From Escherichia coli (GTDB lineage Bacteria; Pseudomonadota; Gammaproteobacteria; Enterobacterales; Enterobacteriaceae): a stretch of 64,000 nucleotides of DNA. A model generated the notes under the pieces. The model had not been told where the DNA came from. It made no database searches and saw only the letters and a program-made list of their open reading frames with translations. The translations under genes and the position numbers were made by a program. Of this stretch, positions 8,766-39,501 are shown one piece after another; position 1 is the stretch's first letter, and every line of letters starts with the position of its first letter. The DNA is taken from the NCBI RefSeq assembly GCF_024502345.1, contig NZ_JALDNN010000001.1. The stretch is one strand, 5' to 3'.

Positions 8766-11000
8766 ATGGTTGCGGTAAGAAGTGCACATATCAATAAGGC
8801 TGGTGAATTTGATCCGGAAAAATGGATCGCAAGTCTGGGTATTACCAGCCAGAAGTCGTGTGAGTGCTTAGCCGAAACCTGGGCGTATTGTCTGCAACAG
8901 ACGCAGGGGCATCCGGATGCCAGTCTGTTATTGTGGCGTGGTGTTGAGATGGTGGAGATCCTCTCGACATTAAGTATGGACATTGACACGCTGCGGGCGG
9001 CGCTGCTGTTCCCTCTGGCCGATGCCAACGTAGTCAGCGAAGATGTGCTGCGTGAGAGCGTCGGTAAGTCTGTCGTTAACCTTATTCACGGCGTGCGTGA
9101 TATGGCGGCGATCCGCCAGCTGAAAGCGACGCACACTGATTCTGTTTCCTCCGAACAGGTCGATAACGTTCGCCGGATGTTATTGGCGATGGTCGATGAT
9201 TTTCGCTGCGTGGTCATCAAACTGGCGGAGCGTATTGCTCATCTGCGCGAAGTAAAAGATGCGCCGGAAGATGAACGCGTACTGGCGGCAAAAGAGTGCA
9301 CCAATATCTACGCGCCGTTGGCGAACCGTCTTGGGATTGGGCAACTGAAATGGGAGCTGGAAGATTACTGCTTCCGTTATCTGCACCCGACCGAATACAA
9401 ACGCATCGCAAAACTGCTGCATGAACGCCGTCTCGACCGCGAACACTATATCGAAGAGTTTGTCGGTCATCTGCGCGCTGAGATGAAAGCTGAAGGCGTT
9501 AAAGCTGAAGTGTATGGCCGTCCGAAACACATCTACAGCATCTGGCGCAAAATGCAGAAAAAGAACCTCGCCTTCGATGAGCTGTTTGATGTGCGTGCGG
9601 TACGTATTGTCGCCGAGCGTTTACAGGATTGTTATGCCGCACTGGGGATAGTGCACACTCACTATCGCCACCTGCCGGATGAGTTTGACGATTATGTCGC
9701 TAACCCGAAACCAAACGGTTATCAGTCTATTCATACCGTGGTTCTGGGGCCAGGTGGCAAAACCGTTGAGATCCAAATCCGCACCAAACAGATGCATGAA
9801 GATGCAGAGTTGGGTGTTGCTGCGCACTGGAAATATAAAGAGGGCGCGGCAGCTGGCGGCGCACGTTCGGGACATGAAGACCGGATTGCCTGGCTGCGTA
9901 AACTGATTGCGTGGCAGGAAGAGATGGCTGATTCCGGCGAAATGCTCGACGAAGTACGCAGCCAGGTCTTTGACGACCGGGTGTATGTCTTTACGCCGAA
10001 AGGTGATGTCGTTGATTTGCCTGCGGGATCAACGCCGCTGGACTTCGCTTACCACATCCACAGTGATGTCGGACACCGCTGCATCGGGGCAAAAATTGGC
10101 GGGCGCATTGTGCCGTTCACCTACCAGCTGCAGATGGGCGACCAGATTGAAATTATCACCCAGAAACAGCCGAACCCCAGCCGTGACTGGTTAAACCCAA
10201 ACCTCGGTTACGTCACAACCAGCCGTGGGCGTTCGAAAATTCACGCCTGGTTCCGTAAACAGGACCGTGACAAAAACATTCTGGCTGGGCGGCAAATCCT
10301 TGACGACGAGCTGGAACATCTGGGGATCAGCCTGAAAGAAGCAGAAAAACATCTGCTGCCGCGTTACAACTTTAATGATGTCGACGAGTTGCTGGCGGCG
10401 ATTGGTGGCGGGGATATCCGTCTCAATCAGATGGTGAACTTCCTGCAATCGCAATTTAATAAGCCGAGTGCCGAAGAGCAGGACGCCGCCGCGCTGAAGC
10501 AACTTCAGCAAAAAAGCTACACGCCGCAAAACCGCAGTAAAGATAACGGTCGCGTGGTAGTCGAAGGTGTTGGCAACCTGATGCACCACATCGCGCGCTG
10601 CTGCCAGCCGATTCCTGGAGATGAGATTGTCGGCTTCATTACCCAGGGGCGCGGTATTTCAGTACACCGCGCCGATTGCGAACAACTGGCGGAACTGCGC
10701 TCCCATGCGCCAGAACGCATTGTTGACGCGGTATGGGGTGAGAGCTACTCCGCCGGATATTCGCTGGTGGTCCGCGTGGTGGCTAATGATCGTAGTGGGT
10801 TGTTACGTGATATCACGACCATTCTCGCCAACGAGAAGGTGAACGTGCTTGGCGTTGCCAGCCGTAGCGACACCAAACAGCAACTGGCGACCATCGACAT
10901 GACCATTGAGATTTACAACCTGCAAGTGCTGGGGCGCGTGCTGGGTAAACTCAACCAGGTGCCGGATGTTATCGACGCGCGTCGGTTGCACGGGAGTTAG
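8766..11000 (+). CDS. relA: GTP pyrophosphokinase (ppGpp synthetase I)
   Basis: 744-aa ORF with RelA/SpoT synthetase domain and C-terminal TGS/ACT regions; position upstream of mazEF. Confidence 0.93.
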   Translation: MVAVRSAHINKAGEFDPEKWIASLGITSQKSCECLAETWAYCLQQTQGHPDASLLLWRGVEMVEILSTLSMDIDTLRAALLFPLADANVVSEDVLRESVGKSVVNLIHGVRDMAAIRQLKATHTDSVSSEQVDNVRRMLLAMVDDFRCVVIKLAERIAHLREVKDAPEDERVLAAKECTNIYAPLANRLGIGQLKWELEDYCFRYLHPTEYKRIAKLLHERRLDREHYIEEFVGHLRAEMKAEGVKAEVYGRPKHIYSIWRKMQKKNLAFDELFDVRAVRIVAERLQDCYAALGIVHTHYRHLPDEFDDYVANPKPNGYQSIHTVVLGPGGKTVEIQIRTKQMHEDAELGVAAHWKYKEGAAAGGARSGHEDRIAWLRKLIAWQEEMADSGEMLDEVRSQVFDDRVYVFTPKGDVVDLPAGSTPLDFAYHIHSDVGHRCIGAKIGGRIVPFTYQLQMGDQIEIITQKQPNPSRDWLNPNLGYVTTSRGRSKIHAWFRKQDRDKNILAGRQILDDELEHLGISLKEAEKHLLPRYNFNDVDELLAAIGGGDIRLNQMVNFLQSQFNKPSAEEQDAAALKQLQQKSYTPQNRSKDNGRVVVEGVGNLMHHIARCCQPIPGDEIVGFITQGRGISVHRADCEQLAELRSHAPERIVDAVWGESYSAGYSLVVRVVANDRSGLLRDITTILANEKVNVLGVASRSDTKQQLATIDMTIEIYNLQVLGRVLGKLNQVPDVIDARRLHGS

Positions 11001-11012
11001 GCCGAAATTTGC

Positions 11013-11060
11013 TCGTATCTACAATGTAGATTGATATATACTGTATCTACATATGATAGC
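11013..11060 (+). promoter_or_regulatory. mazEF promoter/operator region with alternating palindrome
   Basis: tctacaatgtaga ... tatctacatat inverted repeats immediately upstream of the mazE start. Confidence 0.45.
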
Positions 11061-11077
11061 GGTTTGAGGAAAGGGTT

Positions 11078-11326
11078 ATGATCCACAGTAGCGTAAAGCG
11101 TTGGGGAAATTCACCGGCGGTGCGGATCCCGGCTACGTTAATGCAGGCGCTCAATCTGAATATTGATGATGAAGTGAAGATTGACCTGGTGGATGGCAAA
11201 TTAATTATTGAGCCAGTGCGTAAAGAGCCCGTATTTACGCTTGCTGAACTGGTCAACGACATCACGCCGGAAAACCTCCACGAGAATATCGACTGGGGAG
11301 AGCCGAAAGATAAGGAAGTCTGGTAA
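11078..11326 (+). CDS. mazE: type II antitoxin MazE
   Basis: 82-aa ORF ([18 protein letters not shown]...), AbrB/SpoVT fold, overlapping the mazF start. Confidence 0.95.
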
Positions 11327-11661
11327 TGGTAAGCCGATACGTACCCGATATGGGCGATCTGATTTGGGTTGATTTTGACCCGACAAAAGGTAGCGAGCAA
11401 GCTGGACATCGTCCAGCTGTTGTCCTGAGTCCTTTCATGTACAACAACAAAACAGGTATGTGTCTGTGTGTTCCTTATACAACGCAATCAAAAGGATATC
11501 CGTTCGAAGTTGTTTTATCCGGTCAGGAACGTGATGGCGTAGCGTTAGCTGATCAGGTAAAAAGTATCGCCTGGCGGGCAAGAGGAGCAACGAAGAAAGG
11601 AACAGTTGCCCCAGAGGAATTACAACTCATTAAAGCCAAAATTAACGTACTGATTGGGTAG
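11326..11661 (+). CDS. mazF: type II toxin MazF, mRNA interferase
   Basis: 111-aa ORF ([19 protein letters not shown]...), PemK/MazF family, start overlaps the mazE stop. Confidence 0.95.
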   Translation: MVSRYVPDMGDLIWVDFDPTKGSEQAGHRPAVVLSPFMYNNKTGMCLCVPYTTQSKGYPFEVVLSGQERDGVALADQVKSIAWRARGATKKGTVAPEELQLIKAKINVLIG

Positions 11662-11731
11662 TGTTACTAACTCACTTCTATTCTGGTCACAGGTTTCCAC
11701 CTGATAGACCCGCAATTTTCAGGACAATTCA

Positions 11732-12523
11732 ATGAATCAAATCGACCGTTTGCTCACTATTATGCAGCGCCTGCGCGATCCGGAAAACGGCTGCCCGTGG
11801 GATAAAGAGCAGACATTTGCCACCATTGCGCCTTACACCCTTGAAGAAACCTACGAAGTGCTGGACGCCATCGCCCGTGAAGATTTTGACGATCTTCGCG
11901 GTGAACTGGGCGATCTGCTATTCCAGGTGGTGTTTTACGCGCAAATGGCTCAGGAAGAAGGGCGCTTTGACTTTAATGATATTTGCGCTGCTATTAGCGA
12001 TAAATTAGAGCGTCGCCATCCGCATGTTTTTGCTGATAGTTCTGCCGAAAACAGTAGTGAAGTGCTTGCCCGTTGGGAGCAAATCAAAACCGAAGAGCGC
12101 GCGCAGAAAGCGCAGCATTCGGCGCTGGACGATATTCCTCGTAGTTTACCGGCTTTAATGCGTGCGCAAAAAATCCAGAAACGTTGCGCCAACGTTGGCT
12201 TCGATTGGACGACGCTTGGTCCGGTAGTCGATAAAGTCTACGAAGAGATCGACGAGGTGATGTACGAAGCGCGGCAGGCTGTTGTCGACCAGGCTAAACT
12301 GGAGGAGGAAATGGGGGACCTGCTGTTTGCCACGGTCAATCTGGCTCGTCATTTAGGGACAAAAGCGGAAATCGCATTGCAAAAAGCGAACGAAAAATTT
12401 GAGCGTCGTTTTCGCGAAGTGGAGCGTATTGTTGCCGCGCGTGGACTGGAAATGACAGGTGTTGACCTCGAAACAATGGAAGAAGTCTGGCAACAGGTAA
12501 AACGGCAGGAAATTGATCTCTAA
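11732..12523 (+). CDS. mazG: nucleoside triphosphate pyrophosphohydrolase MazG
   Basis: 263-aa ORF with tandem MazG domains, downstream of mazEF. Confidence 0.9.
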   Translation: MNQIDRLLTIMQRLRDPENGCPWDKEQTFATIAPYTLEETYEVLDAIAREDFDDLRGELGDLLFQVVFYAQMAQEEGRFDFNDICAAISDKLERRHPHVFADSSAENSSEVLARWEQIKTEERAQKAQHSALDDIPRSLPALMRAQKIQKRCANVGFDWTTLGPVVDKVYEEIDEVMYEARQAVVDQAKLEEEMGDLLFATVNLARHLGTKAEIALQKANEKFERRFREVERIVAARGLEMTGVDLETMEEVWQQVKRQEIDL

Positions 12524-18009: not shown

Positions 18010-18832
18010 GTGTTCCCCGCGCCAGCGGGGATAAACCGCGCGATTTGTTAGCGCCCGTTGCGCCTGGTGGGTGTTCCCCGCGCCAGCGGGGATAAACCGC
18101 GCGAGTTCGTGCGCATGGGGCGCATTTTTGGCGTGTTCCCCGCGCCAGCGGGGATAAACCGCGGCGTTCATGCCCTCCAGCACTGTTACGCGGGTGTTCC
18201 CCGCGCCAGCGGGGATAAACCGTAGTCAAGCGGTAATTCATCGCCTGCAGATCCGAGTTCCCCGCGCCAGCGGGGATAAACCGGCTAATTTACGTAATTT
18301 ACGTGCTATTGCACTGAGTTCCCCGCGCCAGCGGGGATAAACCGTGGGTCATGCCGGTGATCGCCTGCCCGTCGTGGAGTTCCCCGCGCCAGCGGGGATA
18401 AACCATCACCACCGCTTGTCATAAAATTAGCGTCATAGAGTTCCCCGCGCCAGCGGGGATAAACCGGGGAGTGGCACTTCTGGGGTAGCGGCGGCCCTGA
18501 GTTCCCCGCGCCAGCGGGGATAAACCGTCAACGCGCTCAGACGTTGCGTGAGTGAACCAGAGTTCCCCGCGCCAGCGGGGATAAACCGAAATATCCAGGG
18601 CTGGGCTGGAGGCAGACGGCGAGTTCCCCGCGCCAGCGGGGATAAACCGGCGTTGATGTTCTTGCGGGTGTTGCAAATATTGAGTTCCCCGCGCCAGCGG
18701 GGATAAACCGTTTCAGCAGTTCAGCGTAACACCGACGGTCACGAGTTCCCCGCGCCAGCGGGGATAAACCGCCCGGAATGCATTCTGAAGGTTTGCTGTA
18801 TATGAGTTCCCCGCGCCAGCGGGGATAAACCA
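18010..18832 (+). CRISPR. type I-E CRISPR array, 14 repeats and 13 spacers, leader on the low-coordinate side
   Basis: 29-bp repeat G(T/A)GTTCCCCGCGCCAGCGGGGATAAACCG at 18010, 18071, 18133, 18194, 18255, 18316, 18377, 18438, 18499, 18560, 18621, 18682, 18743, 18804; spacers 32 bp (one of 33). Confidence 0.97.
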
Positions 18833-19286: not shown

Positions 19287-19424
19287 ATATTCCTTGTAAA
19301 AACAGGGATAAACCGAACTAGTTAAAGTTTTTATTATGTTCCCTGCATCAGCGGGGATAAACCGGACTTGTTATCATTTTTTAAGTTGTCGAACTTATGT
19401 TCCCCGCGTCAGCGGGGATAACCA
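19287..19424 (+). CRISPR. degenerate CRISPR remnant (2-3 eroded repeats)
   Basis: cagggataaaccg (19303-19315), atgttccctgcatcagcggggataaaccg (19336-19364), atgttccccgcgtcagcggggataacca (19397-19424); one 20-bp and one 32-bp interval. Confidence 0.65.
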
Positions 19425-35320: not shown

Positions 35321-35528
35321 TGCGAGCAGCATTCCTGATTTTAAACGTGAACGCCGCTGGAAGAATTATCAGGTATAGAATGGCGTCGGGTGCTTGAGGC
35401 TGTCTGGCGTTAAGCATTCGCGAGGTTCCAGATGGACAAAAGCCCCAGGCGATATTTCTATCAACCTGAGGCTCGCGTTCGAACGTAGCAATTCGAATGT
35501 TAGTCTCTTCTTTGCAGGGAGGCAAGAC

Positions 35529-35681
35529 ATGCTGACAAAATATGCCCTTGTGGCAATCATAGTGCTGTGTTTTACAGTACTGGGATTCACGCTGATGGTA
35601 GGCGACTCGTTGTGTGAGTTGAGTATCAGAGAACGTGGTATGGAGTTTAAGGCTGTTCTCGCTTACGAATCGAAGAAGTAG
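35529..35681 (+). CDS. hokX: Hok/Gef-family type I toxin (small membrane peptide)
   Basis: 50-aa [53 protein letters not shown]: single TM helix plus the family C-terminal pattern SLCEL-IR--G-E--A-LAYES; the symbol is my recollection for this position. Confidence 0.7.
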
Positions 35682-35870: not shown

Positions 35871-38135
<2,265 letters not shown>

Positions 38136-38231
38136 GTTAGACGTTCTTTAAAAATAAGGAAATGTTTTAATTTAGTTGGTAGATTGTTGATGCGGAATAA
38201 ATTTGTTTAAAAACAGTTATGTATGCTTAGT

Positions 38232-38443
38232 GTGTTCCCCGCGCCAGCGGGGATAAACCGGGGCCGACGGTCGCAGTATTGGACCATTTCAAGTGTTCCC
38301 CGCGCCAGCGGGGATAAACCGACTCTTACATGCTTAATCAGATTCTGGCGGATGTGTTCCCCGCGCCAGCGGGGATAAACCGGGCGCACTGGATGCGATG
38401 ATGGATATCACTTAGAATTCCCCGCCCCTGCGGTAGAACTCCC
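38232..38443 (+). CRISPR. short type I-E CRISPR array: 3 intact repeats, 3 spacers and a degenerate terminal repeat
   Basis: GTGTTCCCCGCGCCAGCGGGGATAAACCG at 38232, 38293, 38354; 32-bp spacers; degenerate repeat gaattccccgcccctgcggtagaactccc at 38415-38443; truncated leader 38136-38231. Confidence 0.92.
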
Positions 38444-38463
38444 AGCTCCCATTTTCAAACCCA

Positions 38464-39501
38464 TCAAGACGCCTTCGCCAGCTCCTTCACCAACGGTAGC
38501 ATTATCCGCATAACGTCACGGCAGCGACGTTCTATTCTTCCAGGAAGTGCCTTATCAATATGCTGTTGATTATCCAGTCTTACGTCATGCCAGCTATTTC
38601 CCGCAGGGAATGCGGCTGTTTTTGCGCGTTGCTGATAACCATCCTTATTCCCAAGATTCCAGTTAGTCGCTTCCACCGAAAGTACAGCAATGCCCGCTTT
38701 GTCGAATATTTCTGCGTCATTACAACACCCAGTGCCTTTCGGATAATTTTTATTCAGACTCGGATTGGTCGTTGCGGCTATTCCGTGACTGCGCGCAATT
38801 GCCAGCGCCCTGTCGCGCGTTAATTTCCTTACTGATTCAGGGGTTTTTACACCGCTGTTGAAATACAATTTATCGCCAACAATTAAGTTATCGAGATTAA
38901 TCACCAGCAGCGTATTTTTCTTTTCGGTGTCACTCATCCGCTTGAGTAAATTCTCAGCGCCTAATTTCCCTTCCTCTTCGCCGCTGGTCGCCACAAATCG
39001 AATACCATACTCGGTAGGCGTATTTTTCAGGCGTTCTGCCAGTTCCAGCATGACACCTAAACCTGCGGCGTTATCATCCATTCCTTGTAACGTCAGCCCG
39101 CCGAGATTGGCATCGGCGTCAGCATCGCTCAGCGGGGCGTAAGTATCCAGATGCGCCATAATGATGATCTGCTGCGGCGCTTTGCCTTCATGAGCGGCAA
39201 TCACCGTACTTCCCGTCACGTTATGCCAGCTCTTACGATTATCGCGGGCGGTATAAATATACCGACTATTAAATGTCCGAATATCACTGCGATAACCCAT
39301 TTGCTGAAACTGTTGGCGAATATAATCGGCAGATAACATTTCTGCAGGAGTTCCGGTCATGCGTCCCGGAAAGAAAGTAGCAATATGTCGTGCCTGAGTA
39401 TTAGCAAAATCGCCAGGTTTAGGTGACGAGGCGTGTACGGGGAGAATAAAGCATACGCCGAGCGCCAGGGCAGCGGTACGGTGGCGCAATGCGGAAAACA
39501 T
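38464..39501 (-). CDS. iap: alkaline phosphatase isozyme conversion aminopeptidase
   Basis: 345-aa ORF with signal peptide and M28-type metallopeptidase features; position next to the array and cysD. Confidence 0.88.
   Translation of the reverse strand: MFSALRHRTAALALGVCFILPVHASSPKPGDFANTQARHIATFFPGRMTGTPAEMLSADYIRQQFQQMGYRSDIRTFNSRYIYTARDNRKSWHNVTGSTVIAAHEGKAPQQIIIMAHLDTYAPLSDADADANLGGLTLQGMDDNAAGLGVMLELAERLKNTPTEYGIRFVATSGEEEGKLGAENLLKRMSDTEKKNTLLVINLDNLIVGDKLYFNSGVKTPESVRKLTRDRALAIARSHGIAATTNPSLNKNYPKGTGCCNDAEIFDKAGIAVLSVEATNWNLGNKDGYQQRAKTAAFPAGNSWHDVRLDNQQHIDKALPGRIERRCRDVMRIMLPLVKELAKAS

Follow-up and report, generated by a model that had tools for sequence, protein, structure and literature searches.

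The 77-nt spacer between relA and mazE (11001-11077) in this Escherichia coli genome carries overlapping repeats immediately ahead of an antitoxin gene, which raises the question of whether these repeats form a regulatory element and, if so, whether it is their sequence or their unusual arrangement that matters for recognition. Within the window, that is the whole stretch of 64,000 nt analysed, open reading frame calls gave the E. coli gene order relA-mazE-mazF-mazG followed by pyrG, all on the plus strand (Table 1). The deduced MazE protein matched chains of PDB 1UB4 and 1MVF over its full length (E ~5e-52), and the entries 2MRN and 2MRU were matched as well. [quoted passage not shown] We assign the region, with a probability of about 0.93, as the promoter-operator through which the chromosomal E. 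coli mazEF toxin-antitoxin cassette regulates itself.

This element is already known and is present here in its canonical form. Positions 10951-11700 equal the K-12 MG1655 sequence except for one SNP at base 11477 within mazF, and the spacer carries the exact K-12 sequence. From the relA stop to the mazE start the identity to the K-12 mazEF promoter-operator is thus 100%, the flanking genes are the same and MazE is identical; nothing differs from the K-12 operator. The SNP changes mazF codon 51 (11476-11478) from TGT (Cys51) in K-12 to TAT (Tyr51) in this strain, which is the sole difference across 10951-11700. Since an exact 57-mer around this codon was found in 1009 of the 4417 mazF-carrying complete E. 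coli genomes (~23%), MazF Tyr51 is a common natural allele. The antisense RNA aMEF annotated in K-12 starts inside mazF and runs through mazE and the operator into the relA 3' end; it was reported to stimulate mazEF expression (PMC8749433). An Rfam scan detected no RNA family at the operator locus.

Table 1. Positions of genes, operator sites and candidate promoter elements at the relA-mazEF-mazG locus (window coordinates).
Feature	Position	Strand	Basis
relA	8766-11000	+	ORF call; RefSeq annotation of identical loci
Antisense RNA aMEF (ameF)	10967-11366	-	K-12 RefSeq ameF 2911051-2911450, mapped via 100% identical alignment
Candidate Fis site GGCCGAAATTTGCTC	11000-11014	+	matches pattern GNNYRWWWWWYRNNC; straddles last base of relA stop codon
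mazEF operator, 'cab' fragment / 'alternating palindrome' region	11012-11060	+	first 49 nt of published 'cab' oligonucleotide matched exactly; equals K-12
Site 'c', perfect palindrome ATCTACA-A-TGTAGAT (11017-11031, centre 11024)	11015-11033	+	published 'c' oligonucleotide matched
Site 'a', contains ATATAT (11034-11039)	11031-11044	+	published 'a' oligonucleotide matched
Site 'b', third arm GTATCTACA(T) at 11043-11052	11036-11054	+	start of published 'b' oligonucleotide matched
Candidate P2 -10 hexamer TATACT	11037-11042	+	predicted from orthologue alignment and literature hints
Candidate P3 -10 hexamer TATGAT	11052-11057	+	predicted from sequence reading
Ribosome-binding region GAGGAAAGGG	11066-11075	+	sequence reading; precedes mazE ATG at 11078
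mazE, antitoxin and DNA-binding repressor	11078-11326	+	Pfam PF04014, E = 3.5e-14; named mazE in matching genomes
mazF, toxin and co-repressor	11326-11661	+	Pfam PF02452, E = 1.1e-23
mazG	11732-12523	+	ORF call; Pfam PF03819

The repeats consist of three arms, ATCTACA (11017-11023), TGTAGAT (11025-11031) and ATCTACA (11045-11051), the middle one being complementary to both flanks. A repeat search returned the inverted repeat ATCTACA/TGTAGAT (11017-11023 / 11025-11031, 7+7 nt with a 1-nt centre), the inverted repeat ATGTAGAT/ATCTACAT (11024-11031 / 11045-11052, 8+8 nt with a 13-nt spacer), which share the arm 11024-11031, and the direct repeat GTATCTACA at 11015-11023 and 11043-11051, offset by 28 bp. 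The first-pass annotation had quoted two strings ahead of mazE as overlapping inverted repeats, and both were located there: tctacaatgtaga at 11018-11030 and tatctacatat at 11044-11054. The overlap is real, as the middle arm is shared, but tatctacatat corresponds to the third arm and forms no palindrome by itself. The likeness to an 'alternating palindrome' proposed in the same annotation is borne out by the pairing of the middle arm with both flanks and by identity to the published mazEF operator. Its description as a known element was correct, with 11012-11060 being the published 'cab' operator and the region that of K-12, and the span it had given, 11013-11060, coincides with the operator fragment used experimentally (11012-11060).

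The region is short and A/T-rich, and AAATTT, ATATAT and CATATG also occur in it, as would suit an origin of the repeats as chance palindromes in an A/T-rich spacer. Triples were counted as arm, reverse complement and arm of 7-mers within 40 nt. By this definition, the arm triple is unique in the 64-kb window, where first-order Markov simulation of the window gave an expected mean of 0.15 triples per 64 kb, and it arose 20 times in 200,000 shuffles of the 77-nt spacer, i.e. in 1 in 10,000 composition-matched sequences. Binding has moreover been measured directly on this sequence (PMC4333400).

The 'cab' operator oligonucleotide of Zorzini et al. 2015 is CTCGTATCTACAATGTAGATTGATATATACTGTATCTACATATGATAGCGT (PMC4333400), and ITC, EMSA and NMR results on the identical sequence have been published in that work, together with an NMR/SAXS model of MazE on site 'a' (PDB 2MRU). 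PMC4333400 and two reviews credit this operator, as the 'alternating palindrome', to Marianovsky et al. 2001; according to these later papers, its middle part pairs with either flank. Three MazE sites were found on 'cab' (n = 3), and in calorimetry c was bound with a KD of 0.6 uM, b with 2.1 uM and a with 5.6 uM (PMC4333400, Table 2), so that single-site affinities are micromolar only. The tightest single MazE site by published calorimetry is therefore the perfect palindrome 'c' and not the much-studied 'a'. A 2016 review (PMC4803016) ranks 'a' tighter than 'b' or 'c', which contradicts Table 2 of PMC4333400. MazF boosts binding of MazE, and this boost is gone at high MazF:MazE ratios (PMC4333400). 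In our sequence, site 'a' can also be read as the left portion of a degenerate box, ATATATA-C-TGTATCT (11034-11048, centre 11041), with 5+5 of 14 matches, while the arm in site 'b' repeats the first arm directly and the middle one in inverted orientation, representing a half-box centred at 11052. A repeat common to the c and b arms had already been noted as conserved by Chopra et al. 2013. [quoted passage not shown]

Variation of the spacer was determined across complete E. coli genomes. The relA end was matched in 5425 of 5426 genomes, and the spacer together with mazEF in 4418. Of these 4418 mazEF-positive genomes, at least 4344 (at least 98%) share an identical 45-nt core (11013-11057), a lower bound, as megablast misses core variants with central mismatches, whereas only 2834 are identical across the full 77-nt spacer. 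All SNPs in eight sampled alleles fell outside the core, at 11003, 11008, 11012, 11058 and 11060. The genomes are related and the counts hence not independent, and we take the core invariance as a descriptive signal of constraint and not as a formal test. An invariant core in more than 4300 genomes, between flanks that vary, again argues against chance palindromes.

In the remaining 1007 of 5425 genomes (about 19%) mazE, mazF and the operator are jointly absent, and the break is at the relA stop codon. Because all three are missing together from this point on, the operator is part of the mazEF cassette and is gained or lost with it. The mazEF-less genomes have TAA instead of TAG as relA stop, then a different spacer of 95 nt, and then mazG. 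Compared with such a sequence, the window segment 11001-11685 is replaced by the 95-nt spacer (2601-2695 in the mazEF-less sequence compared), and the two sequences become alignable again ~45 nt ahead of the mazG start codon. This relA-mazG spacer folds as a strong hairpin (RNA z = -4.2).

These data bear on the proposal that the inverted repeats are no operator but a transcription terminator or other 3' RNA structure of relA. Such a role would agree with their position, since they begin 17 nt past the relA stop codon. However, a terminator scan was blank on the plus strand here, the A/T-rich stem has no T-run behind it, and the RNA fold of 10996-11077 was no better than that of shuffled sequences (z = -0.17). 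Furthermore, as mazEF-less genomes carry a different, strong hairpin in the relA-mazG spacer, the palindromes are part of the mazEF cassette rather than of relA. Concordantly, the same boxes occur upstream of mazE orthologues that are not located beside relA (see below). On the strength of the terminator scan, RNA folding and the cassette polymorphism, we rejected the terminator explanation, which we regard as extremely improbable.

Twelve MazE orthologue loci with 49-83% identity were collected through the protein database and a contig search; the contig search with MazE yielded four loci only, and E. coli itself was not among them. The set comprises Klebsiella- and Enterobacter-like contigs, two Serratia, Pseudescherichia, Kosakonia, Salmonella, Serratia fonticola, two Pantoea, Chimaeribacter and one Hyphomicrobiales bacterium. 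A box was scored when 10 or more of 14 positions matched ATCTACA-N-TGTAGAT in the 100 nt preceding the start codon. All 12 loci have at least one such box (10-14 of 14) upstream of mazE, compared to 0.03-0.10 boxes per region in shuffles. The recurrence of the box upstream of every orthologue examined, along with the shuffles, the conservation of the core and the measured binding, effectively refutes a chance origin, for which we see next to no probability left.

Two boxes are present in 8 of the 12 orthologues. They are 17 bp apart in the Klebsiella, Enterobacter, Serratia and Salmonella types, 28 bp apart in Pantoea and S. fonticola, and 41 bp apart in Chimaeribacter. In the closest orthologues the second box, 17 bp from the first and equivalent to site 'a', scores 12-13 of 14. 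E. coli has its perfect box at 11024, followed at +17 by a 5+5 box (11041, site 'a') and at +28 by a half-box (11052, site 'b'). The orthologous cassettes (Klebsiella/Enterobacter-like, Serratia, Salmonella, Pantoea, Kosakonia, Pseudescherichia and Chimaeribacter) thus have the same box, ATCTACA-N-TGTAGAT, as E. coli, and the closest ones a -10-like TATAAT between or beside the boxes; they differ in the 17 or 28 bp spacing, in the third arm, which is reversed in the closest of them, and in locations unrelated to relA. No RelA/SpoT-domain neighbour was found at the eight orthologue loci with gene calls, so a mobile cassette has inserted independently at these loci. Close orthologues keep the DNA-contact residues K7, R8, W9, N11 and R16 (as assigned in PMC4333400). 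By these comparisons, what is conserved is a set of tandem, sequence-specific MazE boxes around a -10 element. This tandem-box reading is a refinement and no discovery, given the c/b repeat described by Chopra et al. 2013.

Plasmid-borne MazE homologues added little. Among seven of them (40-46% identity), three carry a related box of at least 10 of 14, which is of the ATCAACA-A-TGTTGAT type in Proteus p152 and E. coli pECTOK and ATCGTAAATGTCGAT in a Sphingobium plasmid. No box of at least 10 of 14 was found in the other four, and because of these the seven plasmid homologues say little about the E. coli element.

The three arms could alternatively act as a DNA structural switch, with the middle arm extruding a hairpin or cruciform with either flank and MazE-MazF recognising the structure, which reportedly was the original idea behind the 'alternating palindrome'. 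The geometry does allow both pairings. In addition, a review states that numerous mutations of the palindrome left MazE-MazF binding unaffected and favours structure over sequence (PMC4803016), and such mutation-tolerant binding sits awkwardly with a model of sequence-specific boxes. However, the single-strand hairpins are weak (c-a -2.4 kcal/mol, a-b -4.1 kcal/mol; z -1.0 to -2.1 versus shuffles), and MazE binds the short linear duplexes c, a and b singly, with a model of the complex with duplex DNA at hand (PMC4333400). Moreover, the four closest orthologues have the third arm in reversed orientation (TGTAGATAC instead of the E. coli GTATCTACA), which abolishes its pairing with the middle arm, although the box sequence is kept. 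Other orthologues have two complete palindromes and not three arms. The flipped third arm combined with the retained box favours a sequence-specific multi-site operator over a structural switch, and we consider the latter quite unlikely. Judging from the sequences compared, the strict 'alternating' three-arm topology is particular to the E. coli version, as it is not kept in its closest orthologues. We infer that the 'alternating palindrome' represents tandem boxes at +17/+28 bp and not a DNA structural switch.

Two promoters, P2 and P3, have been described for mazEF. According to reviews (including PMC4803016), their starts are 13 nt apart with P3 downstream, P2 is about ten-fold stronger, and both are repressed by MazE and more strongly by MazE-MazF. 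The 'a' palindrome was placed ~10 bp upstream of the promoter start (PMC4333400), and the b arm is said in a review to overlap P2. In an alignment of the orthologous promoters, four close ones have a perfect TATAAT in the column occupied by TATACT (11037-11042) in E. coli. Because of this alignment and of the reported positions of 'a' and the b arm, P2 is predicted to use TATACT and to start near 11049-11051. P3 probably uses TATGAT (11052-11057), preceded at 15-nt spacing by the -35-like hexamer TTGATA (11031-11036), with a putative start ~13 nt downstream of that of P2. Both candidate hexamers fit the reported P2/P3 layout as known from later papers; the exact -10 hexamers and transcription start positions given here are predictions. 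A generic sigma-70 scan called neither of the two candidate -10 elements. Its only hexamer pair, at 11053-11082, was disbelieved as a promoter, since it runs into the mazE start codon.

A Fis activation site has been placed just upstream of the palindrome (PMC4803016). The position of our candidate (Table 1) agrees with this literature, although its pattern GNNYRWWWWWYRNNC has 12 matches in the 64 kb, which is no more than chance. An A/T tract lies at the same distance in the closest orthologues. Three of the five SNP positions in the sampled alleles (11003, 11008 and 11012) fall within this site. The candidate activator site is hence polymorphic in the sampled E. coli alleles, and the repressor boxes are not.

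Put together as the most likely working model of the multi-site operator, dimers of the AbrB-fold protein MazE bind three adjacent boxes: c, the perfect palindrome ATCTACA-A-TGTAGAT with its centre at 11024; a, a degenerate box that takes in ATATAT and the -10 element, with its centre near 11041; and b, the half-box GTATCTACAT centred at 11052. These boxes would cover the P2 spacer, -10 element and start region as well as the weak P3 -35/-10 region. MazF dimers would bridge MazE dimers and thereby raise occupancy, upon which MazE-MazF would block RNA polymerase and repress mazEF. Repression would be relieved by an excess of MazF or by loss of the labile MazE, and Fis bound upstream would activate the promoter during growth.

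Related systems share parts of this arrangement. The parD (kis-kid) system of plasmid R1 is, according to literature summaries, a homologous MazE/MazF-type module with two operator regions, one perfect and one imperfect palindrome, at which binding is driven by the antitoxin and tuned by the toxin:antitoxin ratio. The boxes are unlike those of the mazEF operator in sequence and spacing, a comparison in which the boxes were judged from the plasmid MazE homologues and parD from summaries only. The swapped-hairpin repressors AbrB, SpoVT and VapB2 have the DNA-binding fold in common with MazE and differ in partners and regulons; Rickettsia VapB2 was reported to recognise the same ATATAT core through equivalent contacts (PMC4333400).

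Some observations were made at other loci. The Pseudescherichia contig (360-3249) has its mazEF orthologue flanked by an iap-like M28 peptidase gene on one side and PAPS-reductase (cysH-like) genes on the other, a neighbourhood that holds CRISPR-Cas in E. coli; an Xre/RES toxin-antitoxin pair adjoins the orthologue. Our window contains two type I-E CRISPR arrays, one at 18012-18832 (plus 19338-19364) with 14 repeats and a degenerate copy, and one at 38234-38382 with 3 repeats. An ORF of 753 aa occupies 35874-38135, a stretch over which cas3 is annotated in matching genomes. With the 3-repeat array directly behind it and iap (38464-39501, minus strand) next, the genes casA to cas2 seem to be absent from 35874-39501. 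No near-identical full-length match to this segment was found in any complete genome, the best reaching 95.9%. Beside cysH, a match to the sok antitoxin RNA family (RF01794, 106.7 bits, 35388-35544) indicates a putative type I toxin-antitoxin locus of the hok/sok type.

The TACA core of the half-sites contains the MazF cleavage triplet ACA (11021-11023 and 11049-11051), which is present in every orthologous box, and the toxin's own message is among its known targets. This leaves room for the speculation, in our view an unlikely one, that the boxes might act twice, as MazE sites in DNA and as MazF cleavage or processing sites in RNA. The RNA targets might then be the leader at the 5' end of P2 or relA read-through transcripts, as well as the complementary sequence within aMEF. 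If true, one sequence would couple transcriptional and post-transcriptional autoregulation.

The mazEF operator is among the earliest characterised toxin-antitoxin operators, and the discovery value of the present analysis is accordingly small; what it adds is comparative context. Altogether, the linkage of the operator to the cassette, its near-invariant core and the conserved pair of boxes favour a multi-site operator over a structural switch, and this sequence-specific, multi-site view agrees with the calorimetry that puts 'c' tightest.
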